Assembly: GCA_001781125.1 (NCBI GenBank)
Contig: MFKT01000021.1
Location: 5,178-69,177 of the forward strand
DNA length: 64,000 nt
DNA from: Candidatus Kaiserbacteria bacterium RIFCSPHIGHO2_01_FULL_53_29
Lineage (GTDB): Bacteria; Patescibacteriota; Minisyncoccia; Phycocordibacterales; UBA2100
Direction of reading: 5' to 3'
Positions 11,326-55,575 of this stretch are shown piece after piece (within the stretch, counting starts at the first letter, position 1; every line of letters begins with the position of its first letter). The notes beneath the pieces are model-generated. The model did no database searches and had not been told where the DNA came from. It was given only the letters and a program-made list of their open reading frames with translations. A program made the translations under genes and the position numbers.

Positions 11326-13602
11326 ATGTCCAATACTTTGAATAGAATTCGCACACGGTTCTCGATCTTGCTTGGAATGGCAATTCTTCTTGGAAGCTTC
11401 GTCTTTGCAGGAGCTTTTGTTCAAATAGCAGATGCCGAAGTGATATTTTGCGGGACAAGTGCTGGGGCGACATCTACGAGCGGGATCGGCAGGACAGGAA
11501 GATGTGCAGACGGTGCCCGCCTTATCGTGGGTACATCGCCAGGCGAGGGGCCGCAAGGTCCGCAGGGTGAGGCTGGTCCGATTGGTCCACAGGGTCCGCA
11601 GGGCGACACTGGTCCCGCGGGTAGTGATGGAGCGGACGGCGCGACAGGTCCCGAAGGCCCACAAGGTGATACTGGCGCTACAGGTCCGCAGGGTACGGCA
11701 GGCGCTGATGGTGAAGATGGTACTGATGGAGCGGACGGCGCCACAGGCCCGGCCGGTGCCGATGGGACAGATGGCATAGACGGAGCGCAAGGTCCGGAAG
11801 GCGACACGGGACCTCAAGGTCCACAAGGTGACGAGGGGCCACAAGGTGTCGATGGTCCGCAAGGTCTGACGGGCGCTGATGGCGCGACAGGTCCGGAGGG
11901 GCCGGCGGGTGAATCAGCAAATGTCGTCGTGACAGAGGAGGGAGAAGGCGCCAACTGTGAGGCAGGCGGACAGAAAGTCGAGACGAGTGTCGGCGACGAT
12001 TCGCCGCAGGTAAGTTACGTCTGTAACGGACTGGACGGCGACGATGGAACAGACGGGACGAACGGTACCAACGGGACCAATGGCTCCAACGCGCTCGTCG
12101 TCGTGACCGACGAGGCGGCTGGTGCGAACTGTGAATTTGGAGGGGAAAAAGTAGAGTCGGGCGTCGACGCGAACAACAATACTGTTTTGGACGAGCTTGA
12201 GGTTACTTCCACGAGCTACGTCTGCGACGGCGCACCGGGAGCAGAAGGCGCGCCGGGTACACCCGGTGATCCGGGCACACCTGGAGACCAAGGTCTCCCG
12301 GGTCCTCAAGGCGTTCAAGGTATCCAAGGTGAAGTTGGACCACAAGGTCCGCAGGGTGATGTTGGTCCGATGGGGCCGGCTGGCCCAACAGGTCCTCAAG
12401 GTCCAATCGGCTTGACTGGTGAGACAGGTCCCACAGGTCCTCAAGGCGCAGAGGGTCCGACGGGTCCCGCAGGTCCGGCCGGTCCAGCTGGCCCAGAAGG
12501 TCCTGCCGGCCCAACAGGTGCAACTGGTCCGGAAGGTCCAATCGGACCAGCGGGCCCCGCAGGAGCTGATGGAGAAGATGGTACCAACGGGCAAGACGGC
12601 GCGACGGGCCCAGCTGGTCCGACAGGTGCCGCTGGTGCTGATGGTGCTGTCGGTCCAGAAGGTCCAACTGGTCCAGAAGGTCCTACAGGTCCCACAGGCG
12701 CTGCTGGTGACGATGGTCTCGCTTGTTGGGACACAAATCAAAATGGCGTTGCTGATCCCGCAGAAGATTTGAACGGCGACGACGTCTTCGATGCACTCGA
12801 CTGTCAGGGTGCAATAGGTCCGCAAGGTGATACAGGGGCAACCGGGGCAACTGGTCCCACAGGTCCGACGGGTCCAACGGGAGCAACAGGTGACACAGGC
12901 CCAGCTGGTCCGACAGGTGCCGCTGGTGCTGATGGTGCCACCGGCCCGACAGGCGCTACGGGCGCAACGGGTCCGGAAGGTCCACAAGGCCCAATAGGTC
13001 TCACAGGACCTCAAGGTGAGACGGGTCCAGCCGGCGCACAAGGTGACCAAGGAATTCAGGGAGAAATTGGCCCGATGGGTCCGCAAGGTGCTCAGGGAGA
13101 GACAGGAGCAACAGGTGCGACCGGCGCTGATGGCGCAACTGGGGCGGCAGGTGCCACTGGCGCGCCAGGCCCACAAGGAGACACCGGTGCTACGGGAGCA
13201 ACCGGTGCGACTGGTGCACAAGGTCCGCAGGGTGACGTCGGTCCTCAGGGTCCGCAGGGTGATACAGGTCCTGCTGGAGCAACAGGAGCTACAGGTGCTA
13301 CGGGTGCGGCAGGTGCTGATGGAGCTGATGGCGTAAGTGGATGGGAGAGAATCGTTGGCACCGCCTCATCATTGGATGAGATCGCAACAAAAACTGTAGT
13401 CGCAAACTGCAGCGCGGGAAAAAAGGTTCTGGGCGGAGGTTACCGCATTGACGTCGGCGGAGGCAGTATCGCTGCGATTACCAGCATTGTCAGCTTCCCC
13501 GCAGATGACGACACATGGTCTGTAACTGCGAGCGAGGATGACGATGCTATCGTGGGTGACTGGTTGGTCCAAGCCTACGCACTCTGCGCAACAGTTCTCT
13601 AG
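11326..13602 (+). CDS. bacterial collagen-like triple-helix repeat protein with interspersed non-collagen modules and a C-terminal globular domain
   Basis: Signal-like N-terminus. Hundreds of GxY triplets ([25 protein letters not shown]...). Two inserted xVVVTxExxGANCExGGxKVE...SYVCxG modules. A Ca-binding-like [24 protein letters not shown] segment. AGGGAGG-like RBS 25 nt upstream. Confidence 0.8.
11530..13330. repeat. GGN-CCN coding repeats (collagen GxY) generating many spurious overlapping ORFs on both strands
   Basis: Periodic ggt/ggc-ccn-nnn repeats. ORF-track entries 11421..11807, 11914..13221, 12441..12734 and 12804..13004 are artefacts of this periodicity. Confidence 0.7.
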
Positions 13603-13980: not shown

Positions 13981-14032
13981 ACGCGGACACTCTACTCCAC
14001 CTCTTTGTGCTAGTCAAAGCCGCAGCCCCTTG

Positions 14033-14062
14033 ACCTTAGAAGCGTCGCCTCTAAGGTAGGCC
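14033..14062. repeat. REP-like palindrome (REP1, left flank of RAYT1)
   Basis: ACCTTAGAAGCGTCGCCTCTAAGGTAGGCC hairpin. Shares the core GCGTCGCCTCTAAGGTAGG with the right flank. Confidence 0.55.
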
Positions 14063-14066
14063 TTAA

Positions 14067-14759
14067 TTACTTAAGATTTTCGATCATTGGTGATACCTCT
14101 CCGTAATAAGCCCGTGCATCGGAAAGCATTTTCTGCACTGGCACTTGATATGACCGGATTAGATCAACTTGTTCCGGGTCAAGGATCGCGTGCTCGGGCC
14201 GTACCATGCCAGAGTAGTCGGGGAAGCTTGCGTATGGATATGCCCGTATTTTTCTCTCTAGTCTCTGCATGTTTTTAACGAAACCGGATTTCCATTTAGG
14301 TTCGAATAATTCGCACGGATTCATGTGGACATAATCGACCGCACGATGCATATACCGATCGTCCGAGATGTGTTTCGATCTAAACGGCTTGATGAATAAA
14401 TTTCCCACACGGTCGTGCAGATTGTTGAAATAGAGTGCATAGCCCGTTCCGATCTTATGCATAAATCGAGAAATGCCGTGCTCCACAATTTCTTTCATCA
14501 ACAGGTGGATGTGGTTCGGCATCAGACAAAATGCACCAATGGCTACTAACGGTGACTTTCTTGGAAGAGTAAATGTCTCAGCGTATGAAACATGCTCGAA
14601 CAATGGGCGTTGAAGCGATTTTGTGTCGTTTGCCAAATAGAGGAGTTGCATGAACCGGCGATAGTGCGCGTCCTCCTCAAAGGTTATTCTTTTGTCGATG
14701 CCGCGATTGAAACAATGGAAATATTCATCTATTGCAAATGGAGTACGTCTGTAACTCAT
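14067..14759 (-). CDS. IS200-like Y1 HUH transposase, REP-associated tyrosine transposase (RAYT) type
   Basis: HuH motif LMPNHIHLLMKE. Catalytic-Tyr region YALYFNNLHDRVGNLFIKPFRSKHI. Paralogue of 34051..34728. Flanked by REP1 palindromes. Start taken at the internal ATG (MSYRRTPFAIDEYFHCF), which aligns with the paralogue; the track start codon at 14792 is TTG. Confidence 0.7.
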   Translation of the reverse strand: MSYRRTPFAIDEYFHCFNRGIDKRITFEEDAHYRRFMQLLYLANDTKSLQRPLFEHVSYAETFTLPRKSPLVAIGAFCLMPNHIHLLMKEIVEHGISRFMHKIGTGYALYFNNLHDRVGNLFIKPFRSKHISDDRYMHRAVDYVHMNPCELFEPKWKSGFVKNMQRLERKIRAYPYASFPDYSGMVRPEHAILDPEQVDLIRSYQVPVQKMLSDARAYYGEVSPMIENLK

Positions 14760-14797
14760 GAACTTATTGTAGCAACAAAATATGCTCGACAATAAGG

Positions 14798-14841
14798 TTA
14801 CCTTAGAGGCCTACCTTAGAGGCGTCGCCTCTAAGGTAGGT
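14798..14841. repeat. REP-like palindromes (REP1, right flank of RAYT1; two tandem units)
   Basis: TTACCTTAGAGGCCTACCTTAGAGGCGTCGCCTCTAAGGTAGG contains the perfect palindrome TACCTTAGAGGCGTCGCCTCTAAGGTA. Confidence 0.6.
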
Positions 14842-14883
14842 TCATGGAGGCCTACCGGTGCGGGAGGAAGGTACAATGGTCGA

Positions 14884-21697: not shown

Positions 21698-22462
21698 TCA
21701 TTTCGTTACAGCGCACGCGGCAAGGATGCTGTCGATAACGTCGGCTGTTTGATGGGGTCCGGCTACCTGGATCGTCTGAATACCGGTGGGAATCACAACG
21801 GCGTCGTTGCCGCCTGCCTCTAGATCGTCGCCCACGAAGAGCATGTCGTGAGGCTCCACCTTGAGTCGCTCCGCAAACCAGCGCACCCCATGTGCTTTGT
21901 CGATGCCCGTGCGGGTGATGTCTATTGCCGTCCTTCCGGAGATGCGAATATCGAAGCCGGGGAGTCTCGGTTCAAGGAAACGTTTTAGCTGCTCGCGCTT
22001 CGTGCGATCTGGATCCCACGCTGCCTTTTCAGTAGGCGATGCATCAATACCGAGCGCGGCAAACGTGACCTGAACGTCGCGGGCGAGGAACAATTCGCCC
22101 CAGCGCGGCGCGCCTTCGATAATGCGGGTTTCCGCGAGCGCATCGGTGAAAACGTTTATGATCTTGTCGAATTCTTTTTTGGTGAAATCATTCTTATACA
22201 CACTGCGCCACTCTCCTTCGTGGAAGAGGTAACATTGTGCCGCCGTATCGGGGAACAAGTAGAGGCGTCCTTTGTGTACGTCCTCGGGCAGCGAGGGGAG
22301 TAGGTGCTCTTCCATCCGCGAAAAAGAAGCACCCGACATAATGGCAACGGGCATGAGGTCCAAAAGTTGGTGAAGTCTGCTTGCCACATGCGGCTGGGGT
22401 GACTGGAAACTTTCGGCGAGTGTGTTGTCGAGATCAAAAATGACAGCGTGGGGGCATTTCAC
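21698..22462 (-). CDS. HAD-IIB hydrolase, eukaryotic-type phosphomannomutase-like (paralogue 1)
   Basis: Motif I IFDLDNTL. C-terminal FVGDDLEAGGNDAVVIPTGIQT resembles PMM FFGDKTxxGGNDxEI. Start taken as the GTG at the MITE junction (MKCPHAVIFDLDNTL aligns with paralogue MNCPKTVMFDLDDTL). The track start 22519 is an in-frame ATG inside MITE A3. Confidence 0.6.
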   Translation of the reverse strand: MKCPHAVIFDLDNTLAESFQSPQPHVASRLHQLLDLMPVAIMSGASFSRMEEHLLPSLPEDVHKGRLYLFPDTAAQCYLFHEGEWRSVYKNDFTKKEFDKIINVFTDALAETRIIEGAPRWGELFLARDVQVTFAALGIDASPTEKAAWDPDRTKREQLKRFLEPRLPGFDIRISGRTAIDITRTGIDKAHGVRWFAERLKVEPHDMLFVGDDLEAGGNDAVVIPTGIQTIQVAGPHQTADVIDSILAACAVTK

Positions 22463-22573
22463 CCCGTTAGAAATAGGACGCGAACTATCAAGGTTGTCAC
22501 TTCGTTTGGTTATGCCCATAGCCTTATCTTCTCATCATATTCCGATTTCGCTCATCCGCGATTTCTAACGGGG
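22462..22573. mobile_element. MITE-like element, family A, copy 3 (112 bp)
   Basis: Terminal inverted repeats CCCCGTTAGAAATAGG ... GCGATTTCTAACGGGG. Direct duplication TTCA at 22458-22461 and 22574-22577 (TGAA in gene orientation). The upstream copy is preceded by A, giving ATGAA. Confidence 0.6.
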
Positions 22574-22585
22574 TTCATACAATGT

Positions 22586-23347
22586 TTATTTTACCGCGCA
22601 CGCCGCGCAAAGCTCATCAATAATTTCAAGCGTCTCCTGCGGACCCGCGACCTGGCGTGTCTGTATACCTGTCGGTATTACGACTGCGTCGTTGCCCCCT
22701 TCATAAAGTGCGTCGCCGACGAAAAGCATTCCAGCAGGCTCGATGTTGAGCCGCTGTGCAAACCACTGCACGCCATATGCCTTGTTGATGCCTTTGCGCG
22801 TGATATTGATCATGATAGTTCCTCCGATGGAGACCTCGAAATCCGGGATGCGGTGGAGGAGCGCGTCGCGGAGTTTCGTGCGTTTTGTCAGGTCCGGATC
22901 CCACGACGCTTTCTCCAACGCGGATGCCTGGAATCCGATGGCTCCCCACACGACGCTCGCTTCCCGGTCAAGGATCTCGGGCCGTTGCACGGCGTCCTTT
23001 TCAATGACGCCCGTTTCGTCAACGGCTTTCCCTATCTCTTCGATGATAGAAGCGCGCTCCTGTACCGTGAGCTTGAAATCATATTCCAATTTCCATGCTT
23101 TTTCCTCTCGGACGTAACACCGCGCGGCGTTATTCGGCAGAATATACAGGTAGTTTGCGCGGGGGAGGTCGGCAAACGCGGAAAGAATATCACGTTCGAT
23201 ACGGTAAAAACTGCCCCCCGATATGATGGCGATGGGAATGAGCTCGAGAAGCCTCTTGAGCCTCTCCAACACCTCCGGTTTCGGCGGTTCTAAGCTTTCA
23301 TTCAGTGTGTCGTCGAGGTCAAACATCACTGTTTTCGGACAGTTCAT
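22586..23347 (-). CDS. HAD-IIB hydrolase, eukaryotic-type phosphomannomutase-like (paralogue 2)
   Basis: MNCPKTVMFDLDDTL; IISGGSFYRIERDIL; FVGDALYEGGNDAVVIPTGIQT. Confidence 0.6.
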   Translation of the reverse strand: MNCPKTVMFDLDDTLNESLEPPKPEVLERLKRLLELIPIAIISGGSFYRIERDILSAFADLPRANYLYILPNNAARCYVREEKAWKLEYDFKLTVQERASIIEEIGKAVDETGVIEKDAVQRPEILDREASVVWGAIGFQASALEKASWDPDLTKRTKLRDALLHRIPDFEVSIGGTIMINITRKGINKAYGVQWFAQRLNIEPAGMLFVGDALYEGGNDAVVIPTGIQTRQVAGPQETLEIIDELCAACAVK

Positions 23348-27873: not shown

Positions 27874-28461
27874 ATGACATTCGAACCATTCGCGTCGCGC
27901 AGTCACGAAAAAATGAAAGAGGTGCTTATGCATCCGGAGGCGCAGGGGCCAGCCATTCATTACTATATGATCCGCGGCGGCAAGAAAAAGCGGAATATCA
28001 CGGTATGGGAATCGGGCACGGTCGGCGGGGAATACATCAAAACATACGGCCACTACCACGTCGACGATTTGCCAGAGACATACTGGATAGTCGAAGGCGA
28101 GGGACTCGTGCTCCTGCAAAAGTTGGTCACAGAGAACGGAGTGCCGCAGATGGGTCGTGTTGAAGATTTTAAAGTCGTGCCAGTGAAAGCGGGCGATACG
28201 GTAAAAATTCCGGGAAACTGCGGTCATTTGGCGATCAATACGGGAAAGACCTGGTTCGTAACTTTCGACGATAGTCCAGTTGCCACCGATGACTCCGCTT
28301 CAATGCCGGTGCACGCGGATTATGAGATGGTCAAAAAGATGCGTGGCTTCGCGTACTATGTGATCGAGAAAAACGGTACACCGACTCTGGTGCGCAATAC
28401 GCTCTACACAGAGGTGCAGAAAACTGATTTCGGCGGCATTGAAGTAGTAGATAGCCATTAG
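27874..28461 (+). CDS. cupin-type glucose-6-phosphate isomerase (archaeal cPGI type)
   Basis: TYGHYH...ETYWIVEGEGLVLLQ and KAGDTVKIPGNCGHLAINTG match the Pyrococcus cPGI metal-binding cupin motifs (TKGHFH...EVYVALKGKGGMLLQ; GTVVYVPPYWAHRTVNIG). Confidence 0.65.
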   Translation: MTFEPFASRSHEKMKEVLMHPEAQGPAIHYYMIRGGKKKRNITVWESGTVGGEYIKTYGHYHVDDLPETYWIVEGEGLVLLQKLVTENGVPQMGRVEDFKVVPVKAGDTVKIPGNCGHLAINTGKTWFVTFDDSPVATDDSASMPVHADYEMVKKMRGFAYYVIEKNGTPTLVRNTLYTEVQKTDFGGIEVVDSH

Positions 28462-28538
28462 CCACTAGCCATTAGGAAAATGCAATTAGTACAGCATTCC
28501 CGGGTTATTCTAGTGGCTAACCTCTAGTGGCTAATTAC
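28452..28538. repeat. composite inverted/direct repeat filling the whole cPGI-ROK intergenic region
   Basis: TAGCCATTAG x2 and TTAGCCACTAG on the left; two copies of the reverse complement CTAGTGGCTAA on the right. Begins at the cPGI stop codon and ends 2 nt before the ROK ATG. Confidence 0.45.
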
Positions 28539-28539
28539 T

Positions 28540-29409
28540 ATGTTTATCGTTGCTGACATTGGAGGAACGAAAATGCGCATCGCAGGGAGCCGCGATCTCC
28601 TGACATTCAAAGAACCGGTGATCCTCGATACTCCGCATAACTATGGTGTGGGGGTGGAGCTCGTGCGCGATACGATTATGCACATCGCAGGAAAGGAGGC
28701 GATCGAAGCGCTCGCAGCGGGTGTTCCGGGCGCCTTATCGGATGATAAACGCACGCTGCAGGGAGCGCGGCATCTTCCGCTCTGGAAAGAGCATGACCTT
28801 GCGGGGGACCTCGAAAAGGCGCTTTCCACGCACGTTCATCTTGAGAACGATACCGCGCAAGTGGGTTTGGGCGAGGCTGTATTTGGCGCGGGGAAGGGTG
28901 TTGCTGTCGTCGTATACATTACGGTTTCCACGGGAGTGAATGGCGTGCGCATCATCGATGGCGTTATCGATCGCGGTCGCTCCGAAATTGGCGGGCAATA
29001 CCTGCAGGTGGGTGATTCGCCACGCTCGCTCGAAGACATGATCTCCGGGAGCGCCATTTCCGAAAAATACGGCGTGCATCCCAGGGAAATAGAGAAAGAC
29101 TCACCGGTGTGGGAAGAACTCGCTCGGATAACCGCCTTTGGCGTACACAACACCATACTTCACTGGTCACCGGACGTTGTTATTCTCGGAGGCTCGATGT
29201 TCAATGAGATCGGAATTTCGGTCGAGCGAGTGCGCGCGCATGTCGAGGAGATCATGCGAAAGTTCCCGACGGTGCCCGAGATCGTGCACGGGGCACTCAC
29301 CGATCGTGGTGGGCTCTGGGGCGGCTTGGCCCGCCTTCGCCAAGCTCTCCCCCACGCTAAAGTTTCGGCGGGGCAAGTCGGCGATGTAAAACCCGTCTCA
29401 AACAGTTGA
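28540..29409 (+). CDS. ROK-family sugar kinase (glucokinase-like; no HTH)
   Basis: N-terminal FIVADIGGTKMRIA ROK motif. Length and absence of an HTH suggest a kinase, not a repressor. Confidence 0.7.
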   Translation: MFIVADIGGTKMRIAGSRDLLTFKEPVILDTPHNYGVGVELVRDTIMHIAGKEAIEALAAGVPGALSDDKRTLQGARHLPLWKEHDLAGDLEKALSTHVHLENDTAQVGLGEAVFGAGKGVAVVVYITVSTGVNGVRIIDGVIDRGRSEIGGQYLQVGDSPRSLEDMISGSAISEKYGVHPREIEKDSPVWEELARITAFGVHNTILHWSPDVVILGGSMFNEIGISVERVRAHVEEIMRKFPTVPEIVHGALTDRGGLWGGLARLRQALPHAKVSAGQVGDVKPVSNS

Positions 29410-33381: not shown

Positions 33382-34014
33382 ATGTCCATTCTTACCAAAA
33401 AGGAAATTCTCGCGCGGGTAAAGAAGGGGAACATTGTCTTTCATCCGGGTCTCGATAGATTCCAATTGCAGACGCATGCAGTAGACCTCCGACTTGGCTT
33501 TACATTCCTCATCCCGAAATCCTGGAAAATGACGCCGAAGGGCAGGCAAGCGCTTTCGATAGACCCTCTCCGTGATCATGGACCCGAATACTTCGATGTG
33601 ATAGAGCTCGAACAAGGCCAGTCCTTCGACCTTCTGCCGCAAGAGTATGTCCTCGTCTCCACATTCGAGACGATAAAAGTGCCCAACGACCTTATGGCTG
33701 TCTTGTATCCGCGTTCATCAGTCAATCGCAAAGGGCTTTCGGTAGACTTGACCGGTATCATTGATAGCGGCTACGAGGGCCCGCTCACACTTCCCATTCG
33801 CAACAACACACGCTCACAGACCATCCAGCTCCATCCGGGCGAGCGATTTTGCCAGCTTGTTTTCGAAGAACTCAAACACAAAGTAGAACCCAAGAAATCC
33901 CGCTGGCATCAAAAGGACGTGGTGGATAAGGGCAAAAAAGAAAAAGCGGCCGAAATGAAACTCGTCTTTAGCGGCGACCTCAAAAAATTAAAAACCGACT
34001 TCTCTGCTCACTAA
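33382..34014 (+). CDS. dcd: dCTP deaminase (dUTPase-fold)
   Basis: MSILTKKEILARVKKGNIVFHPGLD...VDLRLG dCTP deaminase N-terminus. Confidence 0.8.
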   Translation: MSILTKKEILARVKKGNIVFHPGLDRFQLQTHAVDLRLGFTFLIPKSWKMTPKGRQALSIDPLRDHGPEYFDVIELEQGQSFDLLPQEYVLVSTFETIKVPNDLMAVLYPRSSVNRKGLSVDLTGIIDSGYEGPLTLPIRNNTRSQTIQLHPGERFCQLVFEELKHKVEPKKSRWHQKDVVDKGKKEKAAEMKLVFSGDLKKLKTDFSAH

Positions 34015-34036
34015 CGATGAGATGACATCTCATCGT
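34014..34036. repeat. REP-like palindrome (REP2, left flank of RAYT2)
   Basis: Perfect palindrome ACGATGAGATG-A-CATCTCATCGT starting at the dcd stop codon. Confidence 0.55.
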
Positions 34037-34050
34037 GGTACACTTGGGAC

Positions 34051-34728
34051 ATGGCAAATCGGCCTCCTTTTGAGTTAGGCGAGTGGTATCACTGTTTCAG
34101 CCGCGGTGTCGAGAAAAGAAAGGTATTTGAGAACGAGCTAGACGCAAATCGTTTTCTCATGCTTCTGTACTTAGCGAATGGAACAAAGCCCATACAGATT
34201 TTTAATACATACAAACCGGAACTTTCAAAAGCACTCAAAACTGATCGGGGAACTCCGATTGTTGCGGTTAGTGCGTATTGTCTGATGCCCAATCATTTTC
34301 ATTTGCTATTAAAAGAAGTCGTTGAGGGCGGCATTTCATCGTTTATGAGGAAGTTAGGAATTGCATACACAATGTATTTTAACGAAAAGAATGAACGTGT
34401 AGGGAATCTGTTTGTAAAACCCTTCCGGTCGCGGCGGATTGGTACCGATCGTTATTTCCAACGCGTTCTTCAATACATTCACTGCAATCCAGCTGAATTA
34501 TACGAGCCAGCTTGGAAATCTGGATCAGTGCGAAATATTCGCACACTGGAGAAGAAACTTGTTGATTATCCCTACTCAAGCCTCCGAAATTATTCATTGC
34601 CAAAGAGCAATAACAGGATTCTTTCAAAAGATGGATTTGATGTTGCCGATCATCCTTCGGCCGCCAGAATGATTGAAGATGCTCGATCCTATTATGCGGA
34701 CATTGCAGAAGACAGATTCGAGCGCTAG
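34051..34728 (+). CDS. IS200-like Y1 HUH transposase, RAYT type (paralogue of 14067..14759)
   Basis: LMPNHFHLLLKE HuH motif; YTMYFNEKNERVGNLFVKPFRSRRI Tyr region. Flanked by REP2 palindromes. Confidence 0.7.
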   Translation: MANRPPFELGEWYHCFSRGVEKRKVFENELDANRFLMLLYLANGTKPIQIFNTYKPELSKALKTDRGTPIVAVSAYCLMPNHFHLLLKEVVEGGISSFMRKLGIAYTMYFNEKNERVGNLFVKPFRSRRIGTDRYFQRVLQYIHCNPAELYEPAWKSGSVRNIRTLEKKLVDYPYSSLRNYSLPKSNNRILSKDGFDVADHPSAARMIEDARSYYADIAEDRFER

Positions 34729-34729
34729 T

Positions 34730-34754
34730 CACGATGAGATAACATCTCATCGTG
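34730..34754. repeat. REP-like palindrome (REP2, right flank of RAYT2)
   Basis: CACGATGAGAT-AA-CATCTCATCGTG. Confidence 0.55.
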
Positions 34755-34780
34755 TTCTCCAATATTGGTATAGTCCTGTA

Positions 34781-55002: not shown

Positions 55003-55136
55003 CCCGGCAGGACAATTTCGAATTGCTTTGACCGTGGCAGCTTCAAATGATAGACAAAAGTCTTACTTCGTGGGGCGATTTTGCATCAAGCTGGATATGA
55101 CTGCAGCAAGAACTATTCGAAATTGTACTAGCCGGG
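55003..55136. mobile_element. MITE-like element, family B, copy 2 (134 bp)
   Basis: Terminal inverted repeats CCCGGCAGGACAATTTCGAAT ... ATTCGAAATTGTACTAGCCGGG. Direct duplication (C/T)ATG at 54999-55002 and 55137-55140. The downstream ATG is the start of the cytidylyltransferase gene. Confidence 0.6.
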
Positions 55137-55137
55137 T

Positions 55138-55575
55138 ATGAAAGACGGAAAGAAAGTAGGATTTACCGCCGGGGCATTCGACCTCTGTCACGCCGGACAC
55201 ATGCTCATGTTCGAAGAGGCAAAGACGGTTTGCGAGCACCTCATCGTCGCACTTCAGAGCGACCCGAGTATCGATAGGCCTGACGTCAAGAATAAGCCCA
55301 TCATGTCTCTGAAGGAGCGCATGATAATTCTCAAAGGCATCAAGTACATCGACGAGATAGTGACTTACGACACGGAGGTTGACCTTCTCAAAATGCTTAC
55401 CGAAAACAAGCTGGGCATCGACGTACGTATCTTGGGTGTCGAGTACAAGGACAAGCCCTATACGGGGCGCGATCTGCCGCTGCCGGTCTATTTCAACTCA
55501 CGCGACCATGGTTTCTCGACAACGGAATTACGGGAAAGGGTGTACGAGGCCGAGAAGCTGAAGAACGGGAATTGA
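55138..55575 (+). CDS. cytidylyltransferase-like nucleotidyltransferase (TagD / RfaE-domain-II-like)
   Basis: GFTAGAFDLCHAGHMLMFEEAK (HxGH motif). Confidence 0.7.
   Translation: MKDGKKVGFTAGAFDLCHAGHMLMFEEAKTVCEHLIVALQSDPSIDRPDVKNKPIMSLKERMIILKGIKYIDEIVTYDTEVDLLKMLTENKLGIDVRILGVEYKDKPYTGRDLPLPVYFNSRDHGFSTTELRERVYEAEKLKNGN

Follow-up and report, generated by a model that had tools for sequence, protein, structure and literature searches.

Three short repeats, A1, A2 and A3, in a 64,000-nucleotide stretch of a Candidatus Kaiserbacteria genome (contig MFKT01000021.1, positions 5,178 to 69,177; hereafter the window) are probably mobile elements of a cross-phylum superfamily that is moved in trans, and the excess of such elements at start codons probably reflects self-repairing insertions that have survived selection. 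The observations behind this reading are the anatomy of the copies, their duplications, filled and empty orthologous sites, an enrichment at start codons and a bias towards in-frame ATGs. Direct reading of the sequence placed the three copies and their 4-bp duplications where a preliminary description of the window had put them:

1661 to 1791, + strand: A1, 131 bp, 19 nt past ATG 1642 in a gene for a 1448-residue surface protein (direct reading and fold)
1657 to 1660 and 1792 to 1795: TCAA duplication of A1 (direct reading)
1706 to 1764, + strand: element nested in A1, 59 bp, end subtype GAGGC, same superfamily (direct reading)
1702 to 1705 and 1765 to 1768: CAAG duplication of the nested element
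6639 to 6753, + strand: A2, 115 bp, within the 5' coding part of a gene for a family-2 glycosyltransferase
6635 to 6638 and 6754 to 6757: TGAA duplication of A2 (direct reading)
6696 to 6699, + strand: ATGA overlap in A2, the new in-frame ATG at 6696 lying over the stop TGA at 6697-6699
6753 to 6755, + strand: junction GTG of A2 (direct reading)
21698 to 22462, - strand: HAD hydrolase gene if the junction GTG is taken as its start
22462 to 22573, - strand (gene orientation): A3, 112 bp, in the start codon of this HAD-IIB/phosphomannomutase-like gene
22458 to 22461 and 22574 to 22577: duplication of A3, TTCA on the + strand (TGAA in gene orientation)
22458 to 22462, - strand: junction start codon GTG of A3 (22462-22460), made of the element's last G and the TG of the downstream duplication (22461-22458)
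22517 to 22519, - strand: in-frame ATG inside A3, opening the 19-residue leader MGITKRSDNLDSSRPISNG, followed by V
22574 to 22578, - strand: upstream duplication TGAA of A3 with the original ATG (22578-22576) (direct reading)

A1, A2 and A3 have in common the inverted ends CCCCGTTAGAAAT; the terminal repeats are thus shared as described before, but identity of the arms extends over 13 nt rather than 15. With up to two mismatches allowed, this 13-mer is confined within the 64 kb to the six ends of A1 to A3 (the left arm of A1, CCCCATTAG, carries one mismatch), compared with a chance expectation of about 1.3 matches, unpaired. Among the window copies only A2 displays ...ATAG/CTAT... on both sides, and the ends of the nested element read CCCCGTTAGAGGC/GCCTCTAACGGGG. 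Together with its duplication A1 comprises 135 nt (45 codons) and the nested element 63 nt (21 codons), both in frame, and A1 is open and read through by its host gene, as had been proposed. With their duplications A2 (119 nt) and A3 (116 nt) are not in frame.

A3 is an exact start-codon insertion. Deletion of the element and one copy of TGAA yields cattgtATGAAATGCCCC, reading MKCPHAVIFDLD, which matches the N-termini of the orthologues, of the form M-KCPRAV..., and the upstream duplication copy is located 7 nt past the stop codon of the paralogue at 22586-23347. The claim that A3 had landed within ATG|A of the start codon is borne out by the paralogue, the orthologues and a pair of close relatives whose proteins (P0053 and P0054) are 89% identical, the gene site being filled in locus L131 and empty in locus L132. 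The junction indeed recreates a GTG, and the public annotation starts the gene at the internal ATG (273-residue product). HAD orthologues carry elements of different end subtypes (GAAAT, GAGGC and GAAGC) at the very same start codon, with interiors that cannot be aligned. In the L134 orthologue an element of subtype GAGAC sits one codon away at TAAA and, with GTA as the junction codon, initiation there has to rely on an internal start. Leaders ending in SNGV were present in 11 of 120 clusters of HAD orthologues. Other orthologues have leaders of the type MTAVSNVIK, putative remnants of the element. For this strain, no record of the exact 254-residue protein expected from the empty site was found, nor an empty allele in the population.

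Occupation of the HAD start site in many species and the stability of the element hairpins (z = -3.0 to -6.1; for A3, -40.7 kcal/mol and z = -3.4) could also be accommodated by immobile sequence, that is, by a structured leader, either an RNA hairpin or a regulatory motif, that these genes have inherited from an ancestor. We regard this as scarcely credible, as duplications are present, host genes are unrelated and host phyla many, presence or absence differs within the filled/empty pair, and even copies at one and the same gene lack a conserved interior; moreover, Rfam returned no match at gathering score in the window and none on A3 even at E <= 1.

The fate of the other two copies is different. 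A2 had likewise been assigned to an original start codon, an assignment that must be abandoned: orthologues carry 10-57 residues ahead of the NLKNF motif, and the pre-insertion frame of the window runs from ATG 6508 or 6517, which places A2 some 39-42 codons inside the gene. This truncated original N-terminal frame ends at the stop TGA 6697-6699. A2 would therewith split off the poorly conserved first ~40 codons and restart the gene at its own ATG, and the ATGA overlap suggests coupled translation of the two parts. The internal in-frame ATG with a 19-codon leader, described earlier for A2 and A3, is present in both (ATG 6696 and, on the minus strand, ATG 22519, each 19 codons ahead of the junction GTG). 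A1, on the other hand, would act as a 45-codon in-frame insertion ahead of the signal peptide. A general relay in which overlapping stop and start codons lead from the old ATG to its replacement was considered and discarded, as it fits A2 and A3 but not the family.

The superfamily is defined by the ends CCCCGTTAGA...TCTAACGGGG. At least 120 contigs from many phyla carry exact 12+12-nt end pairs, a lower bound from a scan confined to perfectly matching ends 65-95 nt apart. Assemblies in which the element is present include CP113000.1, the Kaiserbacteria genome GCA_001781875.1 and the 1.2-Mb contig CAWHBU010000003.1. Besides the Kaiserbacteria genome the family is found in at least 10 other bacterial phyla, its hosts including Patescibacteria, Omnitrophota, Planctomycetota, Desulfobacterota, Nitrospirota and others; 2.9 million viral contigs contained no copy. 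Of 132 copies, 84 (64%) have the same 4 bp on both flanks, versus 13 expected if the flanks were independent, and the duplications reported for the window recur in the family at large. Elements measure 29-204 bp, have unrelated interiors and lack a transposase gene, and flanks and host genes differ among the at least 120 contigs. Inverted ends, a duplication, small multi-copy units that encode no transposase, and orthologous sites polymorphic for presence or absence are hallmarks of a MITE, and the earlier interpretation as a non-autonomous transposable element holds across the family on the strength of its inverted ends and duplications.

Alignment of the 132 copies revealed 10 invariant and 3 covarying terminal positions, the arms covarying at positions 11-13. 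The target, R|T-N-A-A, is asymmetric, position -1 being R and position +4 unbiased, and orientation of the element relative to the target is fixed in 10 of 11 similarity clusters (one is unclear). The sequence of the duplication varies within subfamilies (e.g. TAAA and TGAA), about 13 copies have inverted instead of direct flanks (TTNA...TNAA), and perfect mini-hairpins of 29-31 nt occur. From the inverted ends and the duplications we infer that the elements would be moved in trans by a transposase of the cut-and-paste type making 4-bp staggered cuts. The asymmetric target, fixed orientation, covarying arms, mini-hairpins and inverted flanks are odd for a plain cut-and-paste element. An autonomous partner was not found in the window or in ~0.9 Mb of fetched loci among long-range end pairs with matching duplications; nor did the fetched loci disclose one at solo ends with adjoining reading frames, as generic long inverted repeats with duplications or among the protein families common to the loci.

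Orientation-specific insertion, covarying stems and the 29-31-nt mini-hairpins would suit a hairpin intermediate, and we therefore considered REP/REPIN-like hairpins that a Y1 transposase (RAYT or IS200-like) would mobilize in the form of single-stranded DNA. The window contains two RAYT-like genes (14067-14759 on the minus and 34021-34725 on the plus strand), the first of which is flanked by 31-nt hairpins, CCTACCTTAGAGGCG-T-CGCCTCTAAGGTAGG, that have TTAGAGGC in common with the nested element's ends. REP/REPIN and family A are both hairpin-forming repeats of similar size, with RAYT-like genes and their hairpins in the same genomes. Nevertheless, a Y1 mechanism is very unlikely. Transposition by Y1 enzymes leaves the target unduplicated, but 64% of the copies carry a duplication, which varies within subfamilies, and the window shows no amplification of the motif that flanks RAYT. 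In five loci, the hairpins on either side of a RAYT homologue keep a conserved apex (GGCG-N-CGCC) on stems that vary, a design opposite to that of family A, in which the base is conserved and the apex free; these five loci are devoid of CCCCGTTAGA ends and have no family-A ends within 10 kb. REPINs, moreover, are extragenic and lack duplications, whereas family A has duplications and lies in start codons and coding regions. RAYT was accordingly rejected as the mobilizer: its flanks (CCTACCTTAGAGGCG..., ACGATGAGAT..., CACTTGGCGG... and similar) are a sequence family different from family A, none being equal to CCCCGTTAGA. A metagenome scan with the RAYT protein returned three distant matches only. 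An IS5-like transposase beside the RAYT-like gene in locus L112 was dismissed too, its ends being unrelated.

IS1380-family elements and piggyBac, which are related, produce 4- to 5-bp duplications at T/A-rich targets and have ends beginning CC(C)...TAGA (piggyBac CCCTAGAAAG, ISEcp1 CCTAGATTC). The duplication length fits family A, the apparent resemblance to these ends is short, and the piggyBac target TTAA is rare among family-A copies (~3/132). We found no IS1380-family transposase with family-A ends. As a side note, IS1380 is named beside piggyBac in the titles of several piggyBac papers. Palindrome-associated elements derived from IS200/IS605 have a hairpin near each end and, on the left side alone, a fixed target of 4 to 5 nt, without inverted ends or duplication; this identity was rejected, as the ends of family A pair with each other and the flanks vary together within subfamilies. 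Similarly, in an integron attC site a RYYYAAC at the 5' end is paired with GTTRRRY at the 3' end; in family A the core order is reversed (GTTAGA...TCTAAC) and the loop is on the other side of the stem, and attC was likewise discarded.

How, then, do copies come to reside at start codons? Eleven of 19 copies with a TGAA duplication are on strictly defined start codons; in the loci concerned, 6.7% of RTGAA sites overall have that position (odds ratio 19, p = 7e-9). Compared to non-coding RTGAA sites, TGAA copies are still in excess at starts (65% versus 25%, odds ratio 5.5, p = 7e-4), counts for which genes were called by crude open-reading-frame logic and not by a gene finder. The frames following the junction align from profile position 1-2 for rplA, atpD, gmd, trpG/pabA, hrcA, ispH, scpA and nusA, from position 4 for ackA, and after a 24-residue N-terminal extension for rpsQ; as judged by alignment, these starts are the true N-termini of genes that must stay functional. 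The coding mask holds 2 of 19 TGAA copies versus 73% of RTGAA sites, and 9 of 35 TAAA copies versus ~72% of sites, a paucity that points to purifying selection.

An element landing in NTG|AA would retain, in the upstream copy of the duplication, whatever had overlapped the start, such as the TGA stop of an ATGA overlap, and the downstream copy plus the element's final G would form a GTG at the original position, so that the reading frame would keep an initiation codon. From copies with an in-frame ATG the protein would gain a short leader ending in ...SNG-V (the translation of TCT AAC GGG GTG). Insertions at starts would thus be self-repairing and, in very compact genomes, among the few to survive selection, which would explain the start excess without the element seeking starts. 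The earlier statement that the elements precisely target or replace start codons is, on these grounds, too strong, for all that TGAA copies are in excess there: only about a fifth of the sampled copies are at start codons, and the commonest duplications, TAAA and TCAA, show no excess beside gene starts (4/35 and 1/14 just upstream, same as the null). Selection could account for the 2.6-fold excess over non-coding RTGAA sites, and target preference and selection combined may suffice without active targeting; that an excess over non-coding sites persists may indicate that something besides selection is at work.

A bias towards supplied start codons is evident as well. An open in-frame ATG is located inside the element at 18 of 26 start-site junctions, versus 41 of 236 control junctions (17%; odds ratio 10.7, p = 9e-8). 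In the same 26 elements such an ATG was seen in 0, 3, 2, 0 and 6 cases (0-23%) for the two remaining frames and the three at the far end. The ATG precedes the junction by 6-35 codons, most internal ATGs have no Shine-Dalgarno sequence ahead of them, and only the end-repeat peptide ...SNG is common among the leaders. Initiation may take place at the junction GTG or at the internal ATG, and folding of the RNA hairpin may move the former ribosome binding site into the vicinity of the GTG.

Specificity of the ATG bias for frame and orientation raises the possibility that the family, or subfamilies of it, evolved into a start-codon cassette that inserts at starts with a built-in leader (ATG ... SNG-V), perhaps with promoter or structural signals, takes over or modulates initiation and might serve as a reversible on/off or tuning switch via precise excision. 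That diverged species have different subfamilies at one and the same HAD start codon would agree with such a cassette, as would the 65% start occupancy of TGAA copies versus 25% of non-coding RTGAA sites, a ~117-bp Patescibacteria subfamily whose extra-AGG arm always faces the gene (A3, L016, L024, L026, L093, L130, L131 and L134) and a second, unrelated element family in the window that is likewise flanked by ATG. We nonetheless consider it unlikely, because about four fifths of the copies are away from start codons, TAAA and TCAA copies are not enriched beside starts (TAAA copies are followed by Shine-Dalgarno-like sequence in weak excess, 23% versus 13%, p = 0.04), 8 of the 26 start-site copies have no in-frame ATG, and no sigma-70 consensus promoter was found inside A2 or A3. 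Variable ATG positions and unrelated interiors, moreover, fit selection after insertion. Equally doubtful is the wider notion of a pan-bacterial family specialized for translation starts that, in fixed orientation at R|TNAA, rebuilds the start and adds its own ATG and SNG-V leader: it would place essential genes under a transposon-borne initiation module, perhaps reversible by precise excision or tunable by the hairpin, and would imply a transposition mechanism with hairpin, 4-bp duplication and asymmetric target that is not yet described.

Under the reading that we favor, self-repairing insertions of a trans-mobilized family, comparison with known repeats is instructive. Bacterial MITEs such as Correia, RUP, Nezha and Chunjie are, like family A, short, non-coding and multi-copy, have inverted repeats and duplications, fold into hairpins and sit between genes or at gene edges. 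Ends and duplication differ from family A in each case, the duplication of Correia elements being TA. Chunjie was rejected as an identity because its 21-bp repeats and 9-bp duplication (PMC3184786) do not match. Unlike these MITEs, family A conserves only ~10-13 bp, leaves the interior free, extends over many phyla and combines an asymmetric target and fixed orientation with repeated presence in start codons.

Rickettsia palindromic elements (RPE) are palindromic, mobile, persist in frame within genes and add peptide segments (PMC10969869), and A1 and the copy in locus L052, which is also in frame and open, behave like them. By contrast, RPE are ~150 bp, encode a conserved peptide, are limited to Rickettsia and are not described as start-codon replacers, whereas most genic family-A copies are at the first codon, out of frame and dependent on a new start. 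Repeats that carry a promoter and a ribosome binding site as well as an ATG have been described in Neisseria (REP2) and Borrelia (IR) (PMC3184786, PMC10969869). REP2 possesses a promoter and a ribosome binding site but neither terminal inverted repeats nor a duplication, whereas neither a promoter nor a ribosome binding site is recognizable in family A, whose start, unlike that of REP2 or the Borrelia IR, is partly rebuilt from the terminal base and the duplication. Novelty of the class therefore has to be claimed more narrowly than before: start-carrying and in-frame repeats are known, but neither this family nor the replacement of a start codon by an element of this sort was found described in the literature, and in no paper did the family's end sequence occur in a relevant context.

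Ten terminal base pairs are conserved between distant phyla from groundwater and sediment. The shared ends, the asymmetric target, the fixed orientation and the lack of a partner among the loci searched suggest that the transposase or mechanism is one not yet recognized and that the family has spread horizontally among ultra-small bacteria and the neighbors of these. Essential genes (rplA, atpD, nusA and ispH) evidently survive a transposon in the codon that is most sensitive, which opens a route to new N-terminal peptides and gene splits in very compact genomes and offers a natural test of initiation at a GTG behind a long hairpin and at ATGs without a Shine-Dalgarno sequence. Gene callers select the GTG or the internal ATG without evidence for either, and hundreds of proteins in uncultured lineages probably have false or element-derived N-termini (...SNGV). 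Predicted leader peptides of the element-derived type include SDNLDSSRPISNGVK and NARPISNGVNLK.

Direct reading of the sequence bore out the three copies of family A, a MITE-like element with inverted ends and a 4-bp duplication, and revealed a second element nested within the first copy:

1661-1791, A1, in a surface protein gene; duplication TCAA; inner stem GCCCGC/GCGGGC
1706-1764, nested element within A1; ends CCCCGTTAGAGGC; duplication CAAG
6639-6753, A2, in a family-2 glycosyltransferase gene; duplication TGAA; inner stem GCGGGC/GCCCGC
22462-22573, A3, in a HAD hydrolase gene; plus-strand TTCA, i.e. TGAA in gene orientation; inner stem CGCG/CGCG

The six ends of A1-A3 are the sole occurrences of the core CCCCGTTAGAAAT within the window, and the arms match over 13 nt rather than the 15 nt of the preliminary description. 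Beyond this core the stem bases differ between copies yet are complementary within each, and all three copies fold into closed hairpins with stability above shuffled controls (z = -3.0 to -6.1). A1 lies after codon 6 of its host gene and is read through in frame: with its duplication it measures 135 nt and the nested copy 63 nt, each divisible by three. Initiation at an in-frame GTG close to the 3' end of A1 would yield MRARFLTGSISVSRALAAFLVVVL..., a plausible signal peptide. A3 is present in every examined contig of the source population (Candidatus Kaiserbacteria, Rifle aquifer), and the public annotation of the A3-bearing gene gives a 273-residue product that includes the leader.

We then searched one genome per species for CCCCGTTAGARR and YYTCTAACGGGG separated by a gap of 65-95 nt and found such end pairs on at least 120 contigs. 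Hosts among the matches listed include many Patescibacteria classes, Omnitrophota, Planctomycetota, Nitrospirota, Desulfobacterota and other 'delta' lineages (including a complete Thermodesulfobacteriota chromosome), Bdellovibrionales, Clostridia, Edwardsbacteria and Stahlbacteria. Viral contigs yielded no copies, Rfam returned no match for the elements and a literature search for the end sequence gave no occurrence in a relevant context. Only the outer 10-13 bp are conserved, the interiors are unrelated, and sizes range from 29-nt perfect hairpins to ~200 bp. At positions 11-13 the arms covary: 96%, 92% and 79% of copies have complementary bases there, versus 60%, 60% and 32% expected. Identical 4-bp flanks occur in 84 of 132 copies from the matches listed versus 13 expected with independent sides, and the duplication proposed from the window copies is therefore real in other copies as well. 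With strands collapsed, the duplications in these matches are TAAA (36), TGAA (19), TCAA (13) and few others; in the T-N-A-A orientation the preceding base is biased (49 G, 27 A, 4 C and 5 T) and the following base is not. Since duplication polarity is constant among copies with similar interiors in 10 of 11 clusters (the remaining one is ambiguous), insertion is orientation-specific relative to an asymmetric target. About 13 of the 132 copies carry TTNA...TNAA flanks. Mini versions of 29-31 nt consist of two arms and a loop of 3-9 nt and nothing else; some are flanked by a 4-bp duplication (TTAA, L100), and in others the flanks prolong the stem (TTCG/CGAA, L134):

4402-4430 of locus L134, mini element
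3405-3435 of locus L033, mini element
1262-1291 of locus L043, mini element
2660-2688 of locus L100, mini element
999-1027 of locus L118, mini element

The placement of A3 within a start codon was upheld. Deletion in silico of A3 and one TGAA restores ATGAAATGCCCC, which translates to MKCPHAVIFDLD, and short N-termini such as M-KCPRAV are found in 86 of 120 HAD orthologue clusters. In 11 of the 120, a leader ending in [IAV]SNGV directly precedes KCPRAV; this is the translated end repeat TCT AAC GGG GTG, and the DNA agrees in several loci. An empty site, as sought in relatives, is found in locus L132, whose HAD protein is 89% identical to that of L131, where the site is filled (gtATGAG[120 bp]TGAAATGCCC) and the upstream gene's stop TGA is preserved within the left duplication copy. 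The HAD site is also filled in L130, L133 and L134. End subtypes at this site differ (GAAAT in the window, GAGGC in L130 and L131, GAAGC in L133, GAGAC with duplication TAAA in L134), the interiors do not align with one another and the arms are as near to copies at other genes as to one another, which favours recurrent insertion or turnover at this start codon over a single inherited leader. Empty L132 (290-310) reads gtATGAtATGAAATGCCC with a tandem ATGA, L135 (2134-2165) reads gtATGA-CCCCCCTCCCAAAAGTAAACAT-ATGTCC with 21 additional in-frame nt starting CCCC, and several HAD orthologues have MTAVSNVIK-type leaders; such sequences may be remnants of decayed elements or footprints of excision.

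To compare real and control sites, elements were deleted in silico and the same simple open-reading-frame rules applied, a strict start being the first or second in-frame start, at most 35 codons past a stop, that opens a frame of 80 codons or more. Among copies with a perfect TGAA duplication from the matches listed, 11 of 19 occupy a strict start. Of all remaining RTGAA sites in these loci, 6.7% do so (odds ratio 19, p = 7e-9); for RTGAA sites lying outside long reading frames the share is 25% (odds ratio 5.5, p = 7e-4). Profile alignment of the post-junction frames begins at position 1-2 for rplA, atpD, gmd, trpG/pabA, hrcA, ispH, scpA and nusA and at position 4 for ackA, and is preceded by a 24-residue N-terminal extension for rpsQ; these are genuine N-termini of conserved, often essential genes, whose expression must persist. 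In L066 (893-1060) the element in the nusA start codon contains a nested second copy, and its final 21 nt, TGAACAAAACTTCTAACGGGG, are tandemly duplicated to give the protein MNKTSNGVNKTSNGV... Copies with the more frequent TAAA and TCAA duplications are no more common directly upstream of starts than expected and show a weak excess of downstream Shine-Dalgarno-like sequence. Precise targeting of start codons is too strong a description: starts are over-represented among TGAA copies, and start-codon copies account for about one fifth of the sampled family.

Insertion at NTG|AA always places GTG, from the element's last G and the duplicated TG, at the old start position. An in-frame ATG within the element, open to the junction, is present at 18 of 26 start-site junctions; among control junctions the count is 41 of 236 (odds ratio 10.7, p = 9e-8). 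For the same 26 elements, the two remaining frames and the three far-end frames gave 0, 3, 2, 0 and 6. The candidate leaders comprise 6-35 residues and share the ending ...SNG. A Shine-Dalgarno sequence is missing ahead of most of these internal ATGs, and a search of A2 and A3 revealed no consensus promoter. Either the junction GTG or the internal ATG may serve as start; at the HAD gene of L134 the junction reads GTA, which leaves only a start inside the element. We class family A as cross-phylum miniature transposable elements with a geometry that lets insertions at start codons repair themselves. Selection on an (R)TNAA target preference suffices to account for the observations; active targeting of starts, or an adapted initiation module, is less probable.

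A2, also described as a start-codon insertion, proved to be internal. Its host's orthologues have 10-57 residues ahead of the NLKNF motif (e.g. MASLVSAKPAKKGVNLKNF), and the pre-insertion frame, starting at ATG 6508 (which overlaps the upstream gene's stop as ATGA) or 6517, reads MRPMVSHTSTKPIAKTG...GPAKAGL|NLKNF, placing A2 ~39-42 codons inside the gene. The insertion shifts the reading frame, and the stop of the truncated frame (TGA 6697-6699) overlaps the new in-frame ATG 6696 in A2; translation of both parts could be coupled through this overlap, and such overlaps are not general across family A. At 6556-6630, in frame within the N-terminal region, lies a GC-rich stretch of ~75 nt (25 codons) bounded by inverted repeats CCTTCGC/GCGAAGG, with the motif P(I)AK(T/A)GL repeated on both sides. 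The stretch is missing from orthologue P0123 and may represent an earlier palindromic insertion.

No autonomous partner of family A was found in the window or the fetched loci. The inverted ends and 4-bp duplication suggest a DDE enzyme as mobiliser, and the ends may resemble those of IS1380 and piggyBac. The asymmetric target, fixed orientation, covarying arms, mini elements and copies with TTNA...TNAA flanks are unusual for a plain cut-and-paste element. We also considered the RAYT-like Y1 transposases, an abundant family in Paceibacterota, which in the window are bracketed by their own perfect hairpins:

14067-14759, minus strand, first RAYT-like gene; hairpins 14028-14063 and 14797-14843
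34021-34725, plus strand, second RAYT-like gene; hairpins 34009-34043 and 34728-34762

The first reaches 26 bits with the Pfam model Y1_Tnp and, under the cut-off of 80, 40 bits with NCBIfam REP_Tyr_transpos, and one flanking hairpin has TTAGAGGC in common with the element nested in A1. A role as mobiliser is not supported, because the hairpins flanking RAYT homologues in L134 and L136-L139 all combine a constant GGCG-N-CGCC apex with stems that vary, and are unrelated to CCCCGTTAGA. Adjoining the first RAYT gene and type IV pilus/secretion genes, 11326-13602 encodes a 758-residue protein in which collagen-like G-x-x triplets (GPQGP..., GATGP...) fill nearly the whole length.

As A1 does, Rickettsia palindromic elements persist within genes in frame (PMC10969869). 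Neisseria REP2 and Borrelia IR repeats also supply an ATG, together with a promoter and a ribosome binding site, to the frames behind them (PMC3184786). Family A is unlike Chunjie, which has 21-bp repeats and a 9-bp duplication (PMC3184786). The term 'start codon' is absent from a 2024 review of prokaryotic MITEs.

Two copies of another element, family B, have inverted ends of ~25 bp (CCCGGCAGGACAATTTCGAAT...ATTCGAAATTGTACTAGCCGGG(T)) and unrelated interiors:

7984-8111, family B; right-hand ATG opens reading frame 8112-8330
55009-55137, family B; right-hand ATG opens reading frame 55138-55575

Each is flanked by ATG on both sides, so that a second, unrelated family in this genome is also tied to start codons. 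Directly upstream of an ATG at ~28540, an imperfect inverted repeat (ATAGCCATTAGCCACTAGCCATTAG...CTAACCTCTAGTGGCTAATTACTAT, 28451-28541) is composed of short ...TAGCCA... units.
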